This document shows positions 1 to 11,044 of a DNA stretch of 11,447 nucleotides, piece after piece (the stretch's first letter is position 1; each line of letters starts with the position of its first letter). Made by a program: the position numbers and the translations under genes. Origin of the DNA: Candidatus Aenigmatarchaeota archaeon. GTDB lineage: Archaea; Aenigmatarchaeota; Aenigmatarchaeia; Aenigmatarchaeales; JACQIB01. The stretch is taken from assembly GCA_038999215.1 (NCBI GenBank), contig JAWABM010000017.1:1-11447 (forward strand), given 5' to 3'. A model generated the notes under the pieces. That model did no database searches. It had not been told where the DNA came from and saw only the letters and a program-made list of their open reading frames with translations.

Positions 1-2860
1 CGAGCGTGATTTTGTCCTTGACATTGAGGCCGAGCTTCTTCCTCGCGTCCTGCACGGCACGGATTAGCTCGCGCACGAGCCACTCCTCCTTCAGCTTTTC
101 GCTGACCTCGGTGTCCAGCGAAACCATCCCTCCTTCGAAAGCCTTGCCCTCCGCCTTATGCCCGACTTCCGAGAACGCCAAATCTTCCTTTCCGAGGCTG
201 AATTTTCCGACCTTCACCTTGCCCCTCTTGATTATTTCCTCCCTCAGCATGGCGCCGTCGACCTTTGCGAGAGCTTCGGCAAGACCCTTGACATCTTTGC
301 CGAACTTCTTGCCGGCAACAGCGTAATTCGGCTTCGCAACGTATTCCATCCTTTTCCTGCTAACTTCAACCCTCTTCACGTTCGCCATCCTGGCAAGCGG
401 GGCCTCGAGTTTCTTTGCAGCCTTAAGTACGGTCTCCTCGCCGCAAACGCTCATTGAGGCGAGCGGGTACTTCAGCTTTATGCCCTTCTCCTGACGCAGG
501 GCATTCGAAGCTTCCACAATCCTCATGATGATGGCCATGTCCTCCTCGAGCCTCCTATCAATCGCTCCTTTCTCGGCCTTCGGCCACGGTTCGAAATGCA
601 CGCTAGTATCATGGCCGAGCAAATCCGTCCAGATGAAATCGGAAAAATACGGGATGAAGGGGGCCATGGCCTTCGCGACCTTCTCAAAGACCGCTTCGAG
701 CACGAACCTGAGGTAGGCATCCTCCCTCTCCCTGCCGAGCTTCACATACCAGCGCGAGAGGTCGTCGACAACGAACCTTTCGAACTCGGCAAGCGCGATG
801 TGATATTCATGGGCGTCGAGCGCCTCCCCGACCTTCTGCACAAGGGTGCTAGCCCTGGAGACTATCCACTCATCCTCTATCCAGAGCTTGCCTTTCCTCG
901 CCTTGGGCAGCCGCTTAGTGAACAGGTAAACATTCCACAGGGTGTTCAGAGTCGGTATGACTTCCTCTTCAATCGTCTGCGGCCCGAACCTCTTGGTGTT
1001 GCCAGGAGCGGACGTGCACATGGCAAGCCTCGTGGCGTCAACGCCGTACTTGCTGAACATTTCCCATGGGTCTATTATGTTGCCCTTGCTCTTAGACATC
1101 TTCTCGCCGTTCGCGTCGACCAGATGGCCGGCGCAAACCACGCTCTTATATGCCGGCTTTCCAAAAAGCAGCACTCCAAGCACGTGCAGAGTGTAGAACC
1201 AGCCGCGCGTCTGATCTATCGCTTCGGCGATGAAATCGTAAGGGAAGGATTTCTTGAAAAGCTCCTTGCTTTCGAACGGATAGTGGAACTGCGCGAAGGT
1301 AGCCGAGCCTGAGTCGAACCACGTGTCTATGACGTCGGGAACGCGCTCCATAAGCTTGCCACACCTGCACCTTATGACTATCTCGTCTATCGCGGGCTTG
1401 TGCAAATCCAGCTCCTGCGGGACCTCAACCCCCTTCTTTTTGAGCTCATCAATGCTCCCGATGCATTCGGTCTTCCCGCAGGCTTTGCAGCGCCATATGG
1501 GAAGCGGGGTGCCCCAGAACTTGGTCCTGCTCAAGGCCCAGTCCCTGGCCTCCGCGAGCCAATTGCCGAAACGGCCTTCCTTGATGTAATCCGGGTACCA
1601 TCTGATTTTGGCGTTCGCGTCAACGAGCTTCTTTCTGTATTTGCTTACCGCAATGAACCATGACGTCATCGCATAATAGAGCAGCGGAGATTTGCAACGC
1701 CAGCAATAGGGATAATCGTGCGTGTACTTCTCCACGGAAAATATCCTCCCATAGGACGCAAGATGTTCGGTTATCAGCGGGTCCGCATCTATGACGAACA
1801 TTCCTGCCCATTCCCTGACGTCCTTCGAGAATCTTCCGTCCTTTTCGACTGGCTGAACGAAGGCGATGCCGCTTTTTTTGCATGCTTCATAATCTGTCTC
1901 TCCGAAGGCAGGCGCTATGTGCACTATGCCTGTGCCGTCCTCCTCGGACACAAAATCGGCAGGTATGACCTTCCAGGCAGGCTTGTCCAGCTTCCCGACG
2001 AAATAATCGAACAGCGGTTCGTACTCCATCCCAACGAGCTCCCTTCCCTTCACCTCTCTCACGACTTCCGGCTTGCCGGGGAAGTAGTGCTCAAGCCTGC
2101 CTTTGGAAAGCACGAACATGTCGTTGCCCTTCCTGACGAACGCATAAACCATTTCCGGATTAACGGCGAGCGCAAGGTTCGAGGGCAGGGTCCAGGGCGT
2201 GGTGGTCCAAGCAAGGAAATAGAGGTTCTCCTCGTTCTTGACCCTGAATTTCAATGTTATTGAGTCCATAGTGACTTCCTTGTAGCCCTGCGCGACCTCG
2301 TGCATCGACAGCGGGGTCTCACAGCGAGGGCAATAGGGCACGACCTTGTGCGCCTCATAAAGCAGCTTCCTTTTGAACAGCTCCTTCAGGGCCCACCATT
2401 CGCTCTCGATGTACTCATTCTTCAGCGTGATGTAGGGGTTAGCGAGGTCTATCCAATAGGCGGACTTGGAAGTGAAGTTTGTCCAGTCATCTATCCTTGA
2501 GAAGACGTTCTCCCTGCACTGCTGGTTGAACTTCGCTATGCCGTATTTCACCACGTCCTTCTTTGATTCCAGGCCCAAGGCCTTCTCGACCTGGACCTCC
2601 ACAGGCAGGCCGTGGCAGTCCCATCCGCCCTTGCGCGGGACAGAGAAGCCCCTCATGAATTTGTACCTGCAGACTAGGTCCTTGAACACCCTGACCTCGA
2701 GATGGTGCAAGCCTGGCGGGGCATTGGCGGTCGGCGGGCCCTCTAGGAACGAGAAGAGCGGCCTCTTCCTGTCGCCAGCTATGCTGGCCCTTATTTTGGC
2801 CCCTTCCTTCTTCCACAGGCCCTCCACTTCGGCCTCGATGCGCTTGAAATCGTAATTCAT
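1..2860 (-). CDS. ileS: Isoleucine--tRNA ligase (IleRS type 2/archaeal-eukaryotic-like), partial; 3' end runs off the window
   Basis: Segments translated by hand from ATG at 2860: MNYDFKRIEAEVEGLWKK...FLEGPPTANAPPGLHH (HIGH-equivalent, 2702-2713), GWDCHGLPVE, CP1 editing motifs WTTTPWTLPSN and GTGIVHIAPAFG, KMSKS at 1088-1102 (in frame with the ATG), C-terminal EEWLVRELIRAVQDARKKLGLNVKDKI. Probably missing from the ORF track because its stop lies outside the window. Confidence 0.97.
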   Translation of the reverse strand, partial: MNYDFKRIEAEVEGLWKKEGAKIRASIAGDRKRPLFSFLEGPPTANAPPGLHHLEVRVFKDLVCRYKFMRGFSVPRKGGWDCHGLPVEVQVEKALGLESKKDVVKYGIAKFNQQCRENVFSRIDDWTNFTSKSAYWIDLANPYITLKNEYIESEWWALKELFKRKLLYEAHKVVPYCPRCETPLSMHEVAQGYKEVTMDSITLKFRVKNEENLYFLAWTTTPWTLPSNLALAVNPEMVYAFVRKGNDMFVLSKGRLEHYFPGKPEVVREVKGRELVGMEYEPLFDYFVGKLDKPAWKVIPADFVSEEDGTGIVHIAPAFGETDYEACKKSGIAFVQPVEKDGRFSKDVREWAGMFVIDADPLITEHLASYGRIFSVEKYTHDYPYCWRCKSPLLYYAMTSWFIAVSKYRKKLVDANAKIRWYPDYIKEGRFGNWLAEARDWALSRTKFWGTPLPIWRCKACGKTECIGSIDELKKKGVEVPQELDLHKPAIDEIVIRCRCGKLMERVPDVIDTWFDSGSATFAQFHYPFESKELFKKSFPYDFIAEAIDQTRGWFYTLHVLGVLLFGKPAYKSVVCAGHLVDANGEKMSKSKGNIIDPWEMFSKYGVDATRLAMCTSAPGNTKRFGPQTIEEEVIPTLNTLWNVYLFTKRLPKARKGKLWIEDEWIVSRASTLVQKVGEALDAHEYHIALAEFERFVVDDLSRWYVKLGREREDAYLRFVLEAVFEKVAKAMAPFIPYFSDFIWTDLLGHDTSVHFEPWPKAEKGAIDRRLEEDMAIIMRIVEASNALRQEKGIKLKYPLASMSVCGEETVLKAAKKLEAPLARMANVKRVEVSRKRMEYVAKPNYAVAGKKFGKDVKGLAEALAKVDGAMLREEIIKRGKVKVGKFSLGKEDLAFSEVGHKAEGKAFEGGMVSLDTEVSEKLKEEWLVRELIRAVQDARKKLGLNVKDKITL

Positions 2861-2899: not shown

Positions 2900-3322
2900 A
2901 TGGCGGAATGCGAGCTCTGCGGCAGGAAAGCGGAGACGACGGCGGAGGTGGAGGGCGCCGTTGTCGGCGTTTGCTACCGGTGCGCAGGCGGCAGCCCGAA
3001 GCCTGCCGAGCGCAAAAGGCAGTTCAGGCGGGCGCCGAGGATGCCGGAGGAGCTCGAGCAGACTGTCGTGCACGACTTTTCTTCGATAATCAAGTCCAGG
3101 AGAGAGAAGATGGGATTGACGCAGAAGCAGTTCGCCGAGAAAGTCCAGGAGAACGAGAACGTGATAAGGAGGATAGAGGAGGGCTGGATTCCGCCCTTCG
3201 GGACAGTGAGGAAATTCGAGAAGTTCCTCAAGACGAATCTCATAGAAAAAGCGGCGGATGCGCGTCCAAAGAAAGGCAGGCAAGAAAGGATTACGATAGG
3301 TGACGTAGTCGAGGTAAAGTAA
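2900..3322 (+). CDS. mbf1: Archaeal multiprotein bridging factor 1 (aMBF1): N-terminal Zn ribbon plus Cro/XRE-type HTH
   Basis: CELCG...VEGA..VCYRC zinc ribbon; IIKSRREKMGLTQKQFAEKVQENENVIRRIEEG HTH; C-terminal TIGDVV motif typical of aMBF1. Confidence 0.92.
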   Translation: MAECELCGRKAETTAEVEGAVVGVCYRCAGGSPKPAERKRQFRRAPRMPEELEQTVVHDFSSIIKSRREKMGLTQKQFAEKVQENENVIRRIEEGWIPPFGTVRKFEKFLKTNLIEKAADARPKKGRQERITIGDVVEVK

Positions 3323-3330
3323 CCTATCAA

Positions 3331-3338
3331 TTTTTAAA
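3331..3338 (+). promoter_or_regulatory. Putative TATA box of the M20 hydrolase gene
   Basis: TTTTTAAA ending 30 nt upstream of ATG 3369 in an AT-rich intergenic region. Confidence 0.45.
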
Positions 3339-3368
3339 CCTCTCGTGTGATGTTTAATTGGGGTCGCA

Positions 3369-4505
3369 ATGGCAGACAGCGGAAGGATAACCGAGCTTGC
3401 GAAGAAGCTGATAAGCATAGACAGCAGCAACCCGCCGGGAAACGAGAAGCCTGTCGCGGACGCTCTTGCCGAAGAGTTCAGGCGGCTGGGTCTCGAAGTG
3501 AGATTTCTGGAGGCCGCGCACGAGAGGCCCAATGTCATGGCCATATGGCGGGGAGGCAGCGGAAAGAAGCTCATATTCCACGGGCATATGGATACCATAC
3601 CGGTCGGCGAGGGGTGGAAGCACGACCCGTTTGCCGGCGACGTCGAGGACGGCAAGATATACGGCCGCGGGGCCGCCGACATGAAGGGCTCTCTGGCGGC
3701 GCTGGTCTGCGCGATAGAGGACCTCAAGAAGGAGAAATGGGAGCCGAAGGGCGAGCTGATGATTCTGGCCTGCTGCAACGAGGAGATGGGCGACAGGGAG
3801 GAGATAGGCATGAAGTTCGTCGCAGACAAGATAACGGGCGACCTGATAGTGATGGCAGACACAACGAACTTCAACATCGTAACTGCTGAAAAAGGGCCGC
3901 TCTGGCTCGAGTTTATAGCGCGCGGAAAGCAGGCGCACGGCTCGATGCCGTGGCTGGGCATCAACGCTATAGAGATGCTCGGGAAGTTCCTGATGGAGCT
4001 GAAGAAGCTGGAGTTCACGGTGCATCACCCGCTTCTCGGAAAATCGACGCTGTCGATAAACACGATAACAGGCGGGGTGAAGACGAACGCGGTTCCGGGC
4101 GTGGCCCGGGCGACGGTTGACATAAGGCTCGTTCCGGGCGAAAGCAAGGACGGCGTGAAGGCAAGGATAAACGGCATAATAAACGGCATGAAAGCGAAGG
4201 ACAAGAACCTTGACATAGAGATGAAGGAGATAATGTATTTTGAGCCGGTCGAGACATCTCCGGACCAGCCCTTCGTAAGCCAGCTGAAAGAAGTGAACGA
4301 GAAGGTCACGGGAAGGAAGGTGCAGGTTGCGGGCGAGCACGGCACAACAGGCTCGGTGGTCTTCATAAGGAACGGCATACCGGCGATAGTGTGCGGGCCG
4401 GGCAAGCCGGAAGTAGCGCACACGAAAGACGAATACATAGACGTGGACGACCTTGTCAAGGCCTGCGAGATGTACAAGGAGTTTGCGAAGAAGTTCCTCG
4501 GCTGA
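3369..4505 (+). CDS. M20 family metallopeptidase/amidohydrolase (ArgE/DapE-like)
   Basis: Motifs GHMDTIP, IYGRGAADMKG, NEE (catalytic and metal-binding Glu pair), GKQAHGS, TVDIR, GPG...AHTKDE; 378 aa. Confidence 0.92.
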   Translation: MADSGRITELAKKLISIDSSNPPGNEKPVADALAEEFRRLGLEVRFLEAAHERPNVMAIWRGGSGKKLIFHGHMDTIPVGEGWKHDPFAGDVEDGKIYGRGAADMKGSLAALVCAIEDLKKEKWEPKGELMILACCNEEMGDREEIGMKFVADKITGDLIVMADTTNFNIVTAEKGPLWLEFIARGKQAHGSMPWLGINAIEMLGKFLMELKKLEFTVHHPLLGKSTLSINTITGGVKTNAVPGVARATVDIRLVPGESKDGVKARINGIINGMKAKDKNLDIEMKEIMYFEPVETSPDQPFVSQLKEVNEKVTGRKVQVAGEHGTTGSVVFIRNGIPAIVCGPGKPEVAHTKDEYIDVDDLVKACEMYKEFAKKFLG

Positions 4506-4508
4506 TTC

Positions 4509-5456
4509 TCAGGCAAACCCGCGCAGGATGAACAGGAAATAAAGCAGCACAAGCAGCAAGCCCGCGTACCTCGGAACCTGCTTGGTCGCCATCACGACTG
4601 AAACAAAAACCACAGTGAGCAGCGCCACGGGAAAATAGAAATACAGAACAGAAGGGGCTATTGATATGGGGTTGACGAGCGCAATGACACCGGCATTGAG
4701 CAGAACAAAATGTAATACGGAGCCGTTCATGTTGCCGTAACTTATGTCATACCTTCCCTTCAGCGCCGCTGGCAATTGCTTGGCAAGCTCCTCTATGCTT
4801 ATGAGGAAAGCGAGTATTGTCATACCGAAGAGCGTGTCGGTTATGCCAAGAATGCCTATCAGGGGTTTGGCGCCTTCCACGAGCAGCTCGCTGCCCATCA
4901 CGATTCCTACGATCGCGGCAACCATGATTGCGAGCGCCTTCCACTTGCTCAGGCCCTTCACCGCCGCAAGCGATTCCTTGAGCTCTCCTGCGGGCCTGAT
5001 GTCCAAGCCCCTCCTGCTGGCCCCGATAAGATAATACGCCGTTGCAGCGAAAGCGGCCAGCAGCAGGACGCCGTCGAGGCGCGATACAAGGCCGTCCATG
5101 CTCAGCAAATAAAGGAGGATCATAGCGGCAACCGGCGCGAGCAGGAGCTGCTTCGACACCCTTCTGAACCTCATCCTAGTTATCATGGCGGTCAGGCCGA
5201 AGGCGAGAGCCACCGGCACCATTATGGCGCCGACTATGCTGCCTATCGCTATGCCGTGTATGCCCTGCGAGGCACCGGCAGCTCCGGCGGCCATATTCTC
5301 CGGGTCGAATCCCACGAAGACCGCGGTTATCATGAATGCGGAGAGGCCGAAGCCGACCGAAACGCCGACTATTCCCCTGACCAGCTTCTCGGCAGAATAC
5401 ATCATCAGACCGAGGCCGAAAGCGAAGACTGCCAGCGGATAAAGCACGTCATACAT
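4509..5456 (-). CDS. Cation/Ca2+ exchanger (CaCA, Na_Ca_ex/YrbG-like) family antiporter with divergent alpha-repeats
   Basis: 315 aa with ~10 hydrophobic segments in two repeated halves (YSAEKLVRG / MGSELLVEG; GFDPEN / ISIEEL; IAIGSIVG / ISYGNMNGS; SRLDGVLLL / PRYAGLLLV). Confidence 0.82.
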   Translation of the reverse strand: MYDVLYPLAVFAFGLGLMMYSAEKLVRGIVGVSVGFGLSAFMITAVFVGFDPENMAAGAAGASQGIHGIAIGSIVGAIMVPVALAFGLTAMITRMRFRRVSKQLLLAPVAAMILLYLLSMDGLVSRLDGVLLLAAFAATAYYLIGASRRGLDIRPAGELKESLAAVKGLSKWKALAIMVAAIVGIVMGSELLVEGAKPLIGILGITDTLFGMTILAFLISIEELAKQLPAALKGRYDISYGNMNGSVLHFVLLNAGVIALVNPISIAPSVLYFYFPVALLTVVFVSVVMATKQVPRYAGLLLVLLYFLFILRGFA

Positions 5457-5476
5457 GTGTAAGGATTATGCCGTCC

Positions 5477-5487
5477 TTAATATTTAA
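5477..5487 (-). promoter_or_regulatory. Putative TATA box of the antiporter gene (leaderless-type spacing)
   Basis: TTAAATATTAA on the minus strand ~21-31 nt upstream of ATG 5456. Confidence 0.45.
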
Positions 5488-5506
5488 CGTCCATTTCCCA
5501 CATAGA

Positions 5507-5514
5507 TTTATATA
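5507..5514 (+). promoter_or_regulatory. Consensus TATA box upstream of the AbrB/MraZ-like ORF - tRNA-His unit
   Basis: TTTATATA matches the archaeal TATA consensus. Predicted transcription start ~5537-5540, followed by SD-like AGGTGA (5537-5542) and GTG start at 5555. Confidence 0.6.
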
Positions 5515-5554
5515 CTTCCGAGGAGTAATTACTATCAGGTGAATCCTGTGAAAG

Positions 5555-5881
5555 GTGAACCAGTTCACGGCGGCGGAAGACTTTGCCAGGTTCACCTCTA
5601 AAATAGACAAGAAAGGAAGGGTTCTGGTTTCTGCCGATACAAGGAAGCTACTCGGACTCAGGTTCGGGATTCCTGTCGAGGTACTGATCAGCGAGAAGAA
5701 GTTCTATACGAAGGTCGACGAAAGGGGTAGATTCTCCGTGCCAGCACGCCTGCGCAAAGGCAGCGAGGTCTCGGGTGCAATCATTGTTCGCGGTGGTGTA
5801 ATGGCTCGCACAGCAGGCTGTGGACCTGCAGGACCGGGTCCGATTCCCGGCCGCGGACCCATTTCATGGAGGTCGATATAG
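5555..5881 (+). CDS. Tandem AbrB/SpoVT (MraZ-like) DNA-binding protein; C-terminal tail encoded through the tRNA-His gene
   Basis: Two swapped-hairpin repeats, FTSKIDKKGRVLVSADTRKLLGL..G..VEV and FYTKVDERGRFSVPARLRK, each with a DxxGR motif. GTG 5555 is the first possible start (in-frame TGA at 5549). No stop until TAG 5879-5881. Confidence 0.72.
   Translation: MNQFTAAEDFARFTSKIDKKGRVLVSADTRKLLGLRFGIPVEVLISEKKFYTKVDERGRFSVPARLRKGSEVSGAIIVRGGVMARTAGCGPAGPGPIPGRGPISWRSI
5786..5861 (+). tRNA. tRNA-His(GUG) with genomically encoded G-1 and CCA
   Basis: Hand-folded cloverleaf: G-1 (5786):C73 (5858); acceptor TTCGCGG/CCGCGGA; D stem GTGT/GCAC; anticodon stem GCAGG/CCTGC with loop CT-GTG-GA (anticodon 5820-5822); T stem CCGGG/CCCGG with loop TCCGATT; CCA 5859-5861. 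G-1:C73 is the established prokaryotic His identity element. Confidence 0.92.
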
Positions 5882-6008
5882 GTGGGCGAGGAGCTTCACA
5901 AGCGATTTGGAAAAAGTGCAGAAGGATTACGCTGATGGAAAAATCTCCGATAGGGAATACAATGAGCTTACAATATTAATAGGGGCCTACAAAATAGATG
6001 GTGGGTAA
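5882..6008 (+). pseudogene. Small SHOCT-like protein gene interrupted by a single +1 frameshift (pseudogene, assembly error or recoding)
   Basis: SD GGAGGT at 5868-5873, 8 nt before GTG 5882. The frame reads MGEELHKR; skipping one T at 5906-5908 gives LEKVQKDYADGKISDREYNELTILIGAYKIDGG* (stop 6006-6008), matching the SHOCT pattern L..L.....G.IS..EY. Confidence 0.45.
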
Positions 6009-6011
6009 ATT

Positions 6012-7262
6012 ATGGCGTTCCAACCGCCGAAAGGCACAAGGGACTTCCTGCCTGACGAGGCAGCGAAGAGAAGGAAATATTTCGAGCTGGCGCGCAAAAT
6101 ACTGGAGAGCTACGGCTACGGCGAAGTCGTAACGCCGGCTTTCGAAACAATCGAGCTGCTTGAGGCCAAGGGAAGCTTGGGAGAAGAGGCAGTCAAGGAC
6201 GTGTTCAGGATATGGGACAAGGGCAAAGAGAAGCTCGGCTACGGCCTGATATTCGACCCGACGACCCCGATAGCGAGGATAGTCGCTTCTGACAAATCGC
6301 TTCTCAAGCCCTTGAGGTGGTATTACATCAGGCCGATGTGGAGGTACGAGGAGACGAAGGCCGGACGCTACCGCGAGTTCTGGCAGGCGGGGGCGGAGCT
6401 TATAGGGACAGAGGATCCTGCGGCGGATGCGGAGATAGTCGCGCTGACTGCGGACTGCCTGAAGGCGATGGGAATAAAAGATTTCACGATAAAGGCGAGC
6501 TCAAGGAAAATAGCCGAGGCTCTGGCGGATGCGGCTGGAATCCCTGAAGAAAAGAAGACGGCCGCCTTCAGGGCGATGGACAAGATAGAGAAGTTCGGCG
6601 AGGCGGCGGTGAAGGAGGAGATGGGGAAAGCGGGCATACCGGCGAAGGCGGCTGGCAGGCTGCTCAGGCTCGTCGCTGAAGGCGGCAAAGAAATGATGGA
6701 CGCCGCGGCGGTTGCGGAAGTGGAGAAGGTTATTGATTGCGCGAAGAAGATGGGCGTGGAGAAAATAGCGCTCGACTTCAGCATAATAAGGGGAATCGAT
6801 TATTACACAGGCTTCGTTTTCGAGACAACAGTAAAAGGATATGAGAGGCTGGGAAGCGTGGCCTCTGGAGGGCGCTACGATTCCCTGATAGAGATGTACG
6901 GTGGGGCAAAGACCCCGGCGACAGGCGTAGGCATAGGCATCGACAGGCTGATGGAGATAGTGACCGAGAAAATCTCCGCCAGCCCCAAGGTTTTCGTTGC
7001 GAACGTCAAGGAAGAGCAGAAGGAAGACGCTATGAAGATTGCGCAGACGCTGAGGAGGGCAGGAGTTCCGGCGGAATTCAACGTCTCAGGCAAGGGCCTC
7101 AAGAAGCAGATAGAGTACGCAAACGCCAGGAAAATAAAATTCTTCGTCGTAATAGGGCCGGAAGAGGCCAAGGAAGGCACCGCGAAGGTGAGGGACATGG
7201 CCTCGGGCAGGGAAGAGGAGGTCAAAGTCGACAGACTGAAGGATTTTCTCGCAAAGCAATAG
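6012..7262 (+). CDS. hisS: Histidine--tRNA ligase
   Basis: PKGTRDFLP, motif 2 WRYE..AGRYREFWQAGAELIG, HisA loop RGIDYYTGFVFE, GGRYD, motif 3 GVGIGIDRL, and a C-terminal anticodon-binding domain (KKQIEYAN..VVIGPEE), so HisS rather than HisZ. Confidence 0.97.
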   Translation: MAFQPPKGTRDFLPDEAAKRRKYFELARKILESYGYGEVVTPAFETIELLEAKGSLGEEAVKDVFRIWDKGKEKLGYGLIFDPTTPIARIVASDKSLLKPLRWYYIRPMWRYEETKAGRYREFWQAGAELIGTEDPAADAEIVALTADCLKAMGIKDFTIKASSRKIAEALADAAGIPEEKKTAAFRAMDKIEKFGEAAVKEEMGKAGIPAKAAGRLLRLVAEGGKEMMDAAAVAEVEKVIDCAKKMGVEKIALDFSIIRGIDYYTGFVFETTVKGYERLGSVASGGRYDSLIEMYGGAKTPATGVGIGIDRLMEIVTEKISASPKVFVANVKEEQKEDAMKIAQTLRRAGVPAEFNVSGKGLKKQIEYANARKIKFFVVIGPEEAKEGTAKVRDMASGREEEVKVDRLKDFLAKQ

Positions 7263-7448: not shown

Positions 7449-7515
7449 GCATTGTTGCGCTGCGACATCTATACGACAACGCATTAACACGCATTTTTCC
7501 GAGTGAAAAAACAAG

Positions 7516-7524
7516 TTTTAAATA
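7516..7524 (+). promoter_or_regulatory. Putative BRE/TATA promoter of the PINA gene
   Basis: Purine-rich GAAAAAACAAG followed by TTTTAAATA. It lies inside the GTG-7503 extension of the ORF track, which supports ATG 7572 as the true start. Confidence 0.55.
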
Positions 7525-7571
7525 CTTCATCCGCAAATGATAGTACGGTACAGCTTCTAAGAAGTGATAGG

Positions 7572-9371
7572 ATGGCAAAGAAACCAATGAAGATAGTCCC
7601 GGATACATCTGTCCTGGTGAACGGAAGGCTTAGCAGGTTCATAAAAGAGGAAAAGCTCAGCGAAGCAGAGGTAATAATCCCGAAAATAGCGATAGAAGAG
7701 CTGCAGGCGCAGGCCTCGAAAGGGCGGGAATCCGGCTTCGAGGGCATAGAGGAGATAAAGAAAATAAGGGGGATGAAGGGAATCAAGGTCACATTCTGCG
7801 GAGAGCGCCCCAGCTTGGAGGATATCTCGCTCGCCAAGAGCGGGAGGCTCGATGCGCTCATACAGGACGCGGCCAAGAAGCTCGGAGCGACGCTTGTCAC
7901 GTCGGACCTGCCCCAGGCGATGGCCGCCGAGGCCGAAGGCATAAGCGTCAAGCATTACGAGGCCTATGAGAGGGCGGGGAAGATAAGGGTAGAGGAGCTG
8001 CTCACGCCGGACACGATGTCGCTTCACATAAAGGAGGGAGCGCTGCCGTGCGCGAAGAGGGGCGGGCCCGGGAAATTCGAGCTCGTGTGCGCGGGACGCG
8101 AAGCGGTAGATAGGAAGACCATCGATTTGATGATAAGGGAAATAATGGACGCCGCGAGGTACGAGGAGGACTCGTTCGTGGAGTTCGACAGGCGCGGGGC
8201 GTCGGTGATACAGCTGAAGAACATGAGGATAGCGATTGCAAGGCCGCCGTTCTCGGACGCCACTGAAATAACAGTCGTGCGGCCTATAGTGAAGCTCACG
8301 CTGGACGACTACAAGCTTTCTGACAAGCTGAAGGAGCGCCTCGCGGAGAAGGCGGAGGGCATACTGCTAGCCGGCCCGCCCGGCTCCGGCAAGAGCACAT
8401 TCGCCGCATCGCTCGCGGAGTTCTACATGCAAAAAGGGAAGGTCGTGAAGACCATGGAGTCTCCCCGCGACCTCCAGGTGCCCAAGGAGATAACGCAGTA
8501 CTCCATGCTGGAAGGCAGCTTCGCCAAGACTGCGGACGTGCTGCTGCTCGTGAGGCCGGACTACACGGTATTCGACGAGGTGCGGAAGACGTCGGATTTC
8601 GGCGTGTTCGCTGACATGCGCCTCGCAGGCGTGGGCATGGTCGGAGTGGTGCACGCAAGCGACCCGGTTGACGCGGTGCAAAGGTTCATAGGCCGCGTGG
8701 AGCTGGGGGTAATACCGCACATCATAGACACCATAATATTCATAAAGGACGGAAAGGTGGAGAAGGTGTTCAGCCTTGCCCTGACCGTGCGCGTTCCGCA
8801 GGGAATGACAGAGGCGGACCTCGCAAGGCCGATAGTGGAAGTGAGGGATTTCGACAGCGGCAAGCTTGAATATGAAATCTACACTTACGGCGAGCAGACG
8901 ACCGTCGTGCCTGTGAAAACGGAGAAGAAGGCTGGTATGGAGAAGCTCGCCGAGGAGCGCATACGCGAAGAGATAAGGAAATACGACAGCCATGCGCAGA
9001 TAACGTTCGCCTCGGCGGAAAAAGCGATAGTGCGCGTCGGGAACGATATAATTCCGAGGCTGATAGGGAAGGAGGGGAGGAACGTGAAGGAGCTGGAGGA
9101 ACGGCTCGGCATCGGAATAGAAATCGAGCCCGTGGTGGAGAGCCTCGGCAAGGAGGTCAAGGCGGAAATAGGCGAAACGGGCGCGTACGTGGTGCTATAC
9201 TTCAGGAAAGACCTGTGCGGGAAGAAGGCGAACGTCTATGTGAACGACGGATACCTGTTCACGGCCACCATAGGACGCAAGGCGGAGATAAAAATAAGCA
9301 AGGACTCGGACATAGGCAAGGCGCTGATAAGGGCGGCATCAGGGAAAAGGGCAGTAAAGGTTTTTATCTAA
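7572..9371 (+). CDS. PIN-domain P-loop ATPase with KH domain (PINA / COG1855-type; Holliday-junction branch-migration ATPase family)
   Basis: N-terminal PIN (IVPDTSVL, IEELQAQA, LDALI, LVTSD), Walker A GPPGSGKST, MESPRDLQ, RPDYTVFDEVR (Walker B), GVVHA, C-terminal KH with RLIGKEGRNV. Start placed at ATG 7572 (ATG 7587 is an alternative). Confidence 0.93.
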   Translation: MAKKPMKIVPDTSVLVNGRLSRFIKEEKLSEAEVIIPKIAIEELQAQASKGRESGFEGIEEIKKIRGMKGIKVTFCGERPSLEDISLAKSGRLDALIQDAAKKLGATLVTSDLPQAMAAEAEGISVKHYEAYERAGKIRVEELLTPDTMSLHIKEGALPCAKRGGPGKFELVCAGREAVDRKTIDLMIREIMDAARYEEDSFVEFDRRGASVIQLKNMRIAIARPPFSDATEITVVRPIVKLTLDDYKLSDKLKERLAEKAEGILLAGPPGSGKSTFAASLAEFYMQKGKVVKTMESPRDLQVPKEITQYSMLEGSFAKTADVLLLVRPDYTVFDEVRKTSDFGVFADMRLAGVGMVGVVHASDPVDAVQRFIGRVELGVIPHIIDTIIFIKDGKVEKVFSLALTVRVPQGMTEADLARPIVEVRDFDSGKLEYEIYTYGEQTTVVPVKTEKKAGMEKLAEERIREEIRKYDSHAQITFASAEKAIVRVGNDIIPRLIGKEGRNVKELEERLGIGIEIEPVVESLGKEVKAEIGETGAYVVLYFRKDLCGKKANVYVNDGYLFTATIGRKAEIKISKDSDIGKALIRAASGKRAVKVFI

Positions 9372-9389
9372 GACGCGACAGTATTGCTT

Positions 9390-10262
9390 ATGAGAAATCT
9401 TCTGGCGCTGCTGCCGATTCTGCTTCTGGTAATGCCTGCCTTTGCGCAGGAAGTGCCGGGCTATACGGACAAGTACGTGAACGATTTTGCAAAGGTCCTT
9501 TCGCCCGGCCAGGCTGGCGAGCTCAGGGCAATATTCTCGCAGGTCGACCAGAACACGACCGCGGAGATGGCATTGCTCACGGTCGACACGGTATCGCCCT
9601 ATGCGATGAGCGACTATGCCCAGCAGGTCTTTGACAAGTGGAAAATAGGCAAGGCCGACAAGGACAACGGACTGCTGATGCTCTACGCGAAGGACACGCA
9701 GAAGATTTGGGTCTCCACGGGCTACGGCCTCGAGGGCATACTTCCGGACTCCAAGGTGGGGCGCATACTGGACGAGACCTTCGTGCCAGCGAGGGCGGCG
9801 GGCAACGCCACAGAAGGCATAGTGCTTGCGGCTCGCGAGTATGCGGCGGTGATAAGCGAGAACGCGAACGAAGTCATATCAGGCCAGACCGGCCCGTCTT
9901 CGGTGCCAGTTCTGCTGCCCATATTTTTTCCGCTCATGTTCATTGCCATCATAGGCGGCACCTTCTTCAGCGCGCTTGCCGGCCCCAAGTGCCCCAAGTG
10001 CGGCGGAAGGATGAAAGCCGTCAAGACCGAAGTAAAGGCAGAGAAGAGGCCGGGGCCATTCGGCATGACAGTGGAGACGTACTACACGCTGGTCACATAC
10101 GAATGCGCGAAATGCGAGCACAGGACGACTGTCAAGAAGAAGGGGCAGCATAGAAGAAGCGGGGCTTTCGTGATCGCTTCATTTGGAGGCGGGCACGGCG
10201 GAGGCTTCCACGGCGGGGGCTTCGGCGGAGGAGGATTCGGGGGCGGAGGGGCAGGAAGATAA
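9390..10262 (+). CDS. TPM-domain (YgcG-like) membrane protein with C-terminal Zn ribbon and Gly-rich tail
   Basis: Signal peptide ending AFA-Q; YVNDFAKVLS, WKIGKADKDNGLLML, TGYGLEGILPD; TM helix; CPKC...CAKC; GGGFGGGGFGGGGAGR terminus. TTG 9384 is an alternative start. Confidence 0.9.
   Translation: MRNLLALLPILLLVMPAFAQEVPGYTDKYVNDFAKVLSPGQAGELRAIFSQVDQNTTAEMALLTVDTVSPYAMSDYAQQVFDKWKIGKADKDNGLLMLYAKDTQKIWVSTGYGLEGILPDSKVGRILDETFVPARAAGNATEGIVLAAREYAAVISENANEVISGQTGPSSVPVLLPIFFPLMFIAIIGGTFFSALAGPKCPKCGGRMKAVKTEVKAEKRPGPFGMTVETYYTLVTYECAKCEHRTTVKKKGQHRRSGAFVIASFGGGHGGGFHGGGFGGGGFGGGGAGR
10184..10256 (+). repeat. Low-complexity coding repeat (GGN codons, FGGG units) of the TPM protein tail
   Basis: Encodes GGGHGGGFHGGGFGGGGFGGGGAG, a standard feature of TPM/YgcG proteins. 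Confidence 0.7.
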
Positions 10263-10292
10263 TCTTATAAGAAACCCTTCAGATGTGTTATT

Positions 10293-10895
10293 ATGGCAGA
10301 AGCAAAGCAGAACTTCATTTCGAAGTACAAGTGGCCGCTGATAGCGGGAGTAATAGTCCTGCTGCTTGCCGGCTGGATTGCGGGAATGTACAACAACTTC
10401 GTGAGGATGGATCAGGACGTGAGCGCCAAGTGGTCAGAGGTCGAGAACCAGTACCAGAGGCAGGCCGACCTGATACCCAACCTGATATCCACGGTCAGCA
10501 GCGCGGTGAAGGTCGAGACAAGCTACGTGACAGCTGTCACCGAGGCCAGGTCAAGATGGCAGACGGCCGGAACCGCGTACGACAAGGACACGGCAGGAAT
10601 ACAGATGAACAACGCGGTGACCGCGCTGATGAACGCCGTGCTCACGCACGAGAACTATCCGGTACTGCAGGCTAACCAGCAGTACGCGATGCTGATGGAC
10701 GAGCTGACAGGCACGCAGAACAGGATAGCCACGGCCCGCGGCAGGTACATATCCTCCATACAGTCCTACAACACGGGGATAAGGATGTTCCCGGCGAACG
10801 TGTTCGCAGGGATGTTCGGCTTCACGGAAAAGGCATATTACCAGGCAACGACCGAACTTATAACGCCTGCAATCGGAGCAGGGGCATTGCCGTGA
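10293..10895 (+). CDS. lemA: LemA family protein
   Basis: N-terminal TM, YNNFV, WSEVENQYQRQADLIPNL, ENYPVLQAN, ELTGTQNRIATAR, YNTGIRMFPANVFAGMFGF. Candidate TATA TTATAA at 10265-10270. Confidence 0.95.
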   Translation: MAEAKQNFISKYKWPLIAGVIVLLLAGWIAGMYNNFVRMDQDVSAKWSEVENQYQRQADLIPNLISTVSSAVKVETSYVTAVTEARSRWQTAGTAYDKDTAGIQMNNAVTALMNAVLTHENYPVLQANQQYAMLMDELTGTQNRIATARGRYISSIQSYNTGIRMFPANVFAGMFGFTEKAYYQATTELITPAIGAGALP

Positions 10896-10902
10896 TTTTT
10901 TT
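10896..10902 (+). terminator. Putative oligo-T terminator after lemA
   Basis: T7 tract immediately after the TGA stop; archaeal intrinsic terminators are U-rich tracts. Confidence 0.45.
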
Positions 10903-10932
10903 GGGGCGCGAATTTCCGCTCCGATTATCCTA

Positions 10933-10942
10933 TTTTTAAATA
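10933..10942 (+). promoter_or_regulatory. Putative TATA box of tRNA-Arg
   Basis: TTTTTAAATA ending 23 nt upstream of the mature tRNA 5' end (10966). Confidence 0.55.
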
Positions 10943-10965
10943 TTCTCCAGCTTTACTATTATCAT

Positions 10966-11044
10966 GCTCGGCTAGCTCAGCTTGGATCAGAGCGTCCGCC
11001 TCCTAAGCGGAAGGTCGAGGGTTCGAATCCCCCGCCGAGCGCCA
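10966..11044 (+). tRNA. tRNA-Arg(CCU), intron-less, CCA encoded
   Basis: Acceptor GCTCGGC/GCCGAGC; D stem GCTC/GAGC with A20 (Arg identity element); anticodon stem TCCGC/GCGGA with loop CT-CCT-AA (anticodon 11002-11004); T loop TTCGAAT; G73; CCA 11042-11044. Confidence 0.96.

Follow-up and report, generated by a model that had tools for sequence, protein, structure and literature searches.

A probable frameshift-gated hisS leader with a translated-through tRNA-His copy in Aenigmatarchaeota

The stretch of DNA analyzed here (the window; 11,447 nucleotides, contig JAWABM010000017.1 of a Candidatus Aenigmatarchaeota archaeon) carries, ahead of the histidine-tRNA ligase gene hisS, what is probably a frameshift-gated leader with a selected, translated-through copy of tRNA-His, as judged from comparative sequence analysis. 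Comparison with related leaders bears out the anatomy of the shift cassettes, the match between cassette codon and synthetase, the reading frames lacking starts, the tandem sites, the depletion of the cognate amino acid, and the read-through of a structurally conserved extra tRNA. The original prediction, which concerned a tRNA-His gene nested in a regulator gene, overlooked the His-codon +1 cassette, the second cassette after the tRNA, and hisS.

The features of the locus are collected in Table 1. As had been predicted, the frame at 5555-5881 runs stop-free through the tRNA, over 108 codons, to the TAG at 5879-5881, and hisS starts 150 nt 3' of the nested tRNA. A 245-nt contig of run X1, with a depth of 2.2 and possibly sharing the window's source, was compared with positions 5701-5945, thereby covering the 5770-5790 region where an indel had been a concern, and showed 0 differences and 0 gaps. 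A metagenome locus, L279, whose protein is 68% identical, shares both the nested tRNA and the position of the stop. Since the contig agrees with the window and L279 shares its layout, the nesting is no artifact of assembly; that contig, the read-through in homologues and the fresh metagenome loci rule out both a lost stop and a misassembly. Relatives having named records belong to Aenigmatarchaeota, and a protein homologue search gave three matches, without gene context. Window regions 2-2860 (minus strand), 2900-4505, 4509-5456 (minus strand) and 7503-11044 hold ordinary neighbors: an HTH_3 protein, an M20 peptidase, a Na/Ca exchanger and a PIN-ATPase-KH protein by Pfam, and an IleRS-like ORF and TPM- and LemA-like ORFs by eye. 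ARAGORN also placed a tRNA-Arg(CCT) in the window.

Table 1. Features of the leader-hisS locus, given in window positions (SD, Shine-Dalgarno).
Feature	Position	Strand	Basis or detail
Leader-hisS locus: uORF1, +1 AbrB/MraZ frame with tRNA-His copy, uORF2, small ORF, hisS	5497-7262	+	
CCCAC box, 5' of BRE/TATA; candidate site for the leader product	5497-5501	+	Inferred
TATA box of the leader-hisS transcript, TTTATATA	5507-5514	+	Sequence; position conserved in relatives
SD GGTGA, 5 nt before GTG 5548	5538-5542	+	Complementary to the 3' end of the genome's 16S
uORF1, 17 codons, zero frame, GTG start, TAA 5599-5601	5548-5601	+	
Shift cassette 1 (predicted)	5554-5568	+	Internal SD 5554-5558, 4 nt, P-site GTT 5563-5565, His CAC 5566-5568
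+1 frame: two-repeat AbrB/MraZ swapped-hairpin domain (to ~5785) and tRNA-encoded tail	5564-5881	+	Pfam, NCBIfam, structure model
Extra intronless tRNA-His inside the +1 frame	5786-5861	+	G-1:C73, GUG, CCA encoded; T1-A72, T2-G71, T-loop TCCGA
SD of next cassette, 6 nt behind A76	5868-5873	+	Sequence
uORF2, GTG abutting the leader stop, holds shift cassette 2	5882-5935	+	Conserved in L030, L279, L282
Shift cassette 2 (predicted)	SD-like GGCGA 5885-5889; CTT 5894-5896; His CAC 5897-5899	+	
+1 frame of cassette 2: 37-codon small ORF, stop 3 nt before hisS	5895-6008	+	
hisS, histidine-tRNA ligase	6012-7262	+	TIGR00442 383 bits (cut-off 286.75); Pfam

Cassette 1 is a predicted +1 slip site. Within uORF1, GGT GAA is followed by one codon, GTT and CAC; the AbrB frame is the +1 frame of uORF1, and the internal GGTGA matches the genome's own 16S tail. 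A coding sequence starting at 5555, as first proposed, does not agree with the upstream SD, which stands 12 nt from GTG 5555 but 5 nt from GTG 5548, the spacing common to most leaders; the AbrB/MraZ-like frame thus probably does not start at 5555. Many leaders, the window's included, have a GTG in the +1 frame because GGT-GA creates one, and some weak initiation at GTG 5555 might occur. In a loose cassette scan of the whole genome, 57 candidates were found, 20 of them with a short zero frame, and only the two His cassettes described here and an Asn leader on contig C1 were convincing, without any further amino acid being prominent. Taken by itself, the 15-nt His signal is present 23 times in this genome, and an SD-led start is therefore also required.

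One search for the AbrB domain gave 296 matches in 180 out of 371 genomes, 146 of them beyond those listed, and from the matches listed by this and other searches 173 loci were examined, of which 139 were non-redundant. For 138 loci the upstream DNA was long enough to apply a fixed rule, which about 30 of them had served to devise: an SD-like word (at most one mismatch), 4 nt and a P codon, with the +1 frame entering an open AbrB frame. The codon behind the P codon was then compared with the downstream synthetase. At hisS loci, a cluster that takes in HisZ-like genes and consists mostly of orthologues from related genomes, the rule codon was His in 54 out of 61, Asn in one and Tyr in none, and all seven misses had GTT or CTT followed by a His codon, with a variant SD. 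An Asn codon was found in 19/19 loci of the asnS cluster, which takes in AsnA-like genes, and a Tyr codon in 4/4 tyrS loci, while the 54 loci without a synthetase in view had His in 19, Asn in three and Tyr in two. When the spacing at hisS loci was set to 3, 5, 6 or 7 nt, His was found in 3, 1, 6 and 3 of 61, respectively, and the frame controls gave 0/61 (zero frame) and 10/61 (-1 frame). A fresh set of 39 new metagenome loci was reduced to 28 by dropping three without a match and eight duplicates; in these, many of which are close kin and from which the sampling left out single-repeat leaders, the rule gave His in 26. Spacing specificity is weaker in this set, because spacings 6 and 7 also often gave His (1, 0, 12 and 7 of 28 at 3, 5, 6 and 7 nt). 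On a tree of 104 leaders, which is poorly resolved at 44 columns, the amino-acid label changes seven times, at least three of these being forced, and the codon-synthetase match is consequently not a single event.

The P-site codons are GTT, CTT, CCC and CGG before His or Tyr, and CAA and GAA before Asn. Most of them, we infer, are able to pair again once the ribosome has slipped by +1, at the cost of a mismatch in the first position; CGG and CCC, which re-pair poorly or are unlike CUU, count against slippage. The AbrB frame is without ATG, GTG or TTG in 26 of 61 His, two of 19 Asn and three of four Tyr leaders, and ATG is present in 24 of 31 ordinary AbrB loci. An SD-led start codon is missing from this frame in 46 of the 61 His leaders. 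The first SD-led start at His loci stood in the +1 relation to the AbrB frame in 31 cases, in the +2 relation in 18 and in frame in one, with none found in 11, and the +2 leaders that were inspected have two tandem cassettes in successive frames. An extra zero-frame site (CTT plus a Tyr codon, in 7/28, or plus a Trp codon) lies ahead of the His site in many His leaders, namely L279-L311 and L060, and might serve as an additional input or be a source of leakage. The asnS leader of the window's own genome (L053, G000 C1:10764-11064) is paralogous to the hisS leader and has a uORF with an Asn codon and a single AbrB repeat. Its AbrB frame is bounded by a stop immediately ahead of the slip site, lacks a start codon, and runs through a 117-nt, intron-bearing tRNA-Asn copy identical to the stand-alone gene at C1:6996-7112.

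The predicted product of the +1 frame was confirmed to be AbrB/MraZ-like with two repeats: Pfam MraZ (PF02381) matches the frame twice (E 2e-6, 28.1 bits, cut-off 23), and the AlphaFold model (pLDDT 87.8) has the swapped-hairpin PHS018 (2glw) as its best fold match (E 1.3e-5), followed by MraZ. DxxxR motifs are present together with the swapped-hairpin fold. The MraZ equivalog score is 24.7 bits versus a cut-off of 162 (NCBIfam), and the neighbors are hisS and the Na/Ca exchanger, with no dcw context. In the window, the shifted part of the frame has no His codon. More broadly, His residues amount to 2/4468 in His-leader products versus 14/1179 in Asn-leader products (p 2e-8), Asn residues to 2/1179 in Asn-leader versus 180/4468 in His-leader products (p 3e-16), and Tyr residues to 0/346 in Tyr-leader products; the predicted products thus avoid the amino acid apparently sensed by their own leader. 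In six loci (L100, L155, L143, L191, L192 and L212) the AbrB frame continues stop-free into a long downstream frame, which is AsnA-like in L100 and HisS-like in L155, where it lies behind the nested tRNA.

The prediction of a complete tRNA-His with G-1 on a codon boundary held: ARAGORN finds tRNA-His(GTG) at 5787-5861, the Rfam tRNA model matches 5787-5858 with 48.1 bits (gathering score 29), and G-1 at 5786 falls on a codon boundary of the AbrB frame. It is not the only tRNA-His of the cell, as a canonical stand-alone gene with an intron and its own TATA lies at C5:11650-11763 of the same genome. The nested copy departs from this housekeeping type, having TCCGA rather than TTC in the T-loop and no TATA of its own; the C5 copy has both. 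ARAGORN miscalls the C5 gene as tRNA-Phe, and tRNA-His introns are found in the T-loop or D-loop in several relatives. A second tRNA-His was found in 23 of 42 genomes with a nested copy and not in the other 19, in an incomplete search of genomes that are 63-95% complete. A pattern search for stand-alone tRNA-His succeeded in 9 of 43 genomes, and although an RNA model and inspection found more, the search remains incomplete.

The expectation that homologues also lack a stop before the tRNA was borne out. Six of eight two-repeat homologues read through the tRNA in the same frame, and all 36 tRNA-His copies within 400 nt of a leader stop, two of which parse poorly, lie wholly inside the frame, 34 of them in one register, at 20 spacer lengths. 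The other two frames of these copies hold stops in 31 and 32 cases, and no His copy was found behind or across the stop in the main (0/36) or fresh (0/10) set. Among 28 aligned nested copies, 99.4% of cells are paired, 17 of 22 pairs are compensatory, and G-1:C73 (28/28) and the anticodon are invariant. The D-loop GG is present in 26 of 36 nested versus 17 of 17 stand-alone copies (p 0.02), and the T-loop TTC in 26 of 36. The nested copies have hence kept their stems, G-1:C73 and GUG, while the elbow is relaxed, and these patterns mark the overlap of tRNA and frame as conserved and selected. In L060 and L215, a tRNA-His copy at the end of a racemase gene is read through in the same register. 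Before tyrS, tRNA-Tyr-like copies are nested in an unrelated carrier in three of four loci (L318, L319 and L320, not L321); this carrier, of about 130 codons in L318-L320, appears helix-turn-helix-like by eye, with sub-threshold Pfam matches, is preceded by a short uORF containing Tyr, and reads as lying in the -1 frame. The tRNA-Asn copies of L065, L107 and L118 are behind asnA/asnS and not nested, and in the fresh set a tRNA copy is absent from the neighborhood of 18 of the 28 His-type leaders. Position 74 is C in 28/28 aligned nested copies, CCA is encoded in only 6/36, and several stand-alone tRNA-His genes have T74. The constancy of C74 could reflect a Pro codon, a synthetase contact or an RNase Z anti-determinant.

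Downstream, the distance from N73 to the next SD has a median of 9 nt in 30 of 36 nested copies. In 81 of 104 leaders, the next SD-led start either overlaps the leader stop or is at most 5 nt away from it. Second cassettes before the next gene were found in 28 of 103 loci, and the genes behind them include racemase, GNAT, histidinol dehydrogenase and AsnA-like genes. The 37-codon small ORF of the window had no family match at cut-off; homologous peptides occur in L279 and L282, and the ORF is mostly deleted in L291. The His operons of relatives repeatedly have genes for a racemase, an M20 peptidase, GNAT and creatininase-family proteins placed between leader and hisS, beside hisG, hisI, histidinol dehydrogenase and aromatic amino acid lyase genes. 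This His-related operon content suggests a His salvage regulon.

As to the promoter, no TATA-like run was read in the 35 nt 5' of the nested tRNA, and the nearest promoter is indeed that at 5507 (TTTATATA), both in agreement with the original prediction; a sigma-70 scan is unsuited to archaea. CCCAC, whose reverse complement GTGGG resembles MraZ boxes, precedes the TATA box in 81 of 84 synthetase-linked leaders versus five of 31 ordinary AbrB loci, and in 28 of 28 fresh metagenome loci, while in the window's genome it precedes just three of 253 TATA-like words. The tRNA-Cys promoter at G000 C3:42527 (minus strand) has the same layout, CCCACATAG plus TATA. According to PMC12957436, GTG(G/T) boxes are the targets of MraZ, which contacts them through DxxxR loops (also PMC5282649). 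Because CCCAC is enriched at leaders and MraZ binds GTG(G/T) boxes via the same DxxxR loops, self-regulation is plausible, and by this analogy we tentatively suggest that the leader product may bind the CCCAC box of its own promoter.

On the model we favor, ribosomes would initiate at GTG 5548 and, with charged tRNA-His plentiful, read the His codon in the zero frame and stop at 5599; the tRNA copy would then fold, since unshifted ribosomes leave the rest of the leader bare. With His-tRNA scarce, the A site would stand empty, and the internal SD and the re-pairable P-site codon would favor a +1 slip. The slipped ribosomes would enter the His-free AbrB/MraZ-like frame and make its product, unfold the tRNA copy, stop beside the following start, and be handed via the second His cassette to hisS. 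The slippage event, the effect of starvation on it, and the coupling are thus predicted features. A single transcript cannot have its tRNA copy translated and folded into the cloverleaf at the same time, and here a part of the dual-function mRNA/pre-tRNA switch originally envisaged stands; processing of the nested tRNA is also possible, because RNase P RNA is present in the genome. Its other part, coupling of regulator synthesis to tRNA-His maturation, is not supported, because a canonical stand-alone tRNA-His was found in this genome and in 23 of the 42 genomes checked that carry a nested copy, and the D-loop GG is gone in 10 of 36 nested copies. The folded copy may well be an operator that binds HisRS and hides the SD next to its 3' end, a reading favored because the identity elements are fixed, the elbow is loose and the SD is adjacent. 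That it is a signal for RNase P/Z cleavage or for termination seems somewhat unlikely, a role as extra tRNA supply more doubtful still, and neutrality of the folded copy improbable.

Alternative explanations account for parts of these data. As first envisaged, the leader could be a normal AbrB gene with GTG 5555 as its start, its mRNA being either translated or matured into the working tRNA-His. The GTG is in frame, the cloverleaf is fully conserved, CCA is encoded here, RNase P RNA is present, and 19 of 42 genomes yielded no second tRNA-His; however, the SD fits GTG 5548, 26 of 61 homologues have no in-frame start codon, the canonical C5 copy exists, the elbow is relaxed in 10 of 36, and the codon-synthetase match would go unexplained, all of which makes this a very improbable account. 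Sensing of His by stalling on the uORF, an attenuation-like process in which a +1-frame start, weak or non-standard, becomes accessible, would fit a single cognate codon at a fixed place, and in the window a predicted hairpin (-24.3 kcal/mol) pairs SD1 with the leader. Yet 97 leaders were no more structured than shuffles (median z -0.5), so that a conserved leader hairpin is not supported, and no terminator-like site was found at 5400-6100. Moreover, the tandem sites in successive frames and the restricted, re-pairable P-site codons fit slippage, and TTC, AAA or GGC, none of them a start codon, stands 5 nt behind the internal SD. We regard stalling as a poor candidate.

Another explanation concerns the tRNA alone and is compatible with the frameshift: the copy could be merely a second source of tRNA-His, its nesting a by-product of a compact genome. 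Most leaders work without a copy, some tRNA-Asn copies are outside ORFs, and one nested tRNA-Asn is identical to its stand-alone gene, intron included. A by-product is nevertheless unlikely, given that none of the 36 and 10 His copies lies behind or across the stop, although the other frames hold stops in 31 and 32 of 36, and that the register stays the same over 20 spacer lengths as well as in two further carrier genes. Duplicated tRNAs next to a small antitoxin-fold gene are typical of mobile elements that integrate at tRNA genes, and the locus does have this appearance; as a relic with degenerate attachment-site copies, though, it would hardly show a whole cloverleaf under compensatory selection or a copy that always matches the synthetase, and no integrase family was found among 31 representatives of downstream clusters (singletons left out). 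This last explanation is scarcely credible.

With respect to known systems, the leader resembles the bacterial prfB (RF2) site, as presented in PMC5009743, in having a short zero-frame ORF, an internal SD, a CUU-type P-site codon, a slow A site and a +1 product; this product has no start of its own, although the window keeps GTG 5555 in frame. Counted from GGTGA, 4 nt separate the SD and the P codon, versus 3 nt in prfB, and the A-site codon is a sense codon for His, Asn or Tyr, whereas prfB has UGA there and encodes a release factor (PMC5009743). The leader would thus act like a prfB shift but is no member of that group, because its A-site codon is a sense codon and its product is not a release factor. 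It further differs in being archaeal, in its tandem and cascaded sites, and in the genes regulated, i.e. synthetases and His-pathway genes. Limitation of aminoacyl-tRNA promotes +1 slips at 'hungry' codons, and no functional trans-frame product specific to starvation was known according to this 2016 review (PMC5009743). Unlike the hungry-codon shifts reviewed there, the leader sites are conserved and matched to the synthetase. The archaeal recoding cases listed in a 2021 review, namely fucA1 (-1), haloviruses and Mg chelatase, include none given as an amino-acid sensor or a cellular +1 shift (PMC8211752). The leader is also unlike a leader-peptide transcription attenuator, with one sensing codon per site, 0 terminator-like sites and no excess structure. 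Cognate identity elements are present in the synthetase's own transcript, beside a ribosome-binding site, as in tRNA-mimic operators. One such operator is that of E. coli thrS, a tRNA mimic in the synthetase's own autoregulated transcript. The anticodon mimic of the yeast HisRS mRNA is likewise a cognate tRNA-like element in the synthetase's own transcript (PMC6542539). The leader differs from both in that a whole 76-nt cloverleaf lies inside an upstream translated frame, and synthetase binding is putative. Its product shares with MraZ/AbrB regulators the fold, the DxxxR motifs with basic residues and a GTGG-like upstream box (PDB 2glw; PMC12957436), but is a predicted frameshift product with a domain of ~45-75 aa in one or two repeats, far under the equivalog cut-offs and outside any dcw operon. 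No published report of such a frameshift leader system was found in the open-licence literature. It would be new as a regulatory system, with parts that are already known.

Taken further, the leaders may form a modular three-layer system of amino-acid control in Aenigmatarchaeota, unmatched by any system described so far, which we offer with reserve from sequence comparison: cognate-codon +1 gates, a translated-through tRNA-mimic operator of the synthetase, and a starvation-made MraZ-like factor of self-feedback, re-targeted between His, Asn and Tyr by joint change of codon, tRNA copy and gene. The gates would be single, tandem and AND-like, or cascaded before each gene; the mimic would be bound by the synthetase when no ribosome clears it; and the factor, free of the sensed amino acid, would feed back on its own promoter. 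Gene callers would then be assigning wrong starts to such leaders and to several of the enzymes encoded behind them, and tRNA finders would be listing the mimics as genes.

Archaea are not known to have counterparts of T-box riboswitches or attenuators acting on synthetase genes, and the leader appears to be a hitherto undescribed means of detecting that an amino acid is short. If this is true, hungry-codon frameshifting would have a natural and conserved role in sensing aminoacyl-tRNA, in a system where a whole tRNA is kept within a protein-coding frame for regulation.
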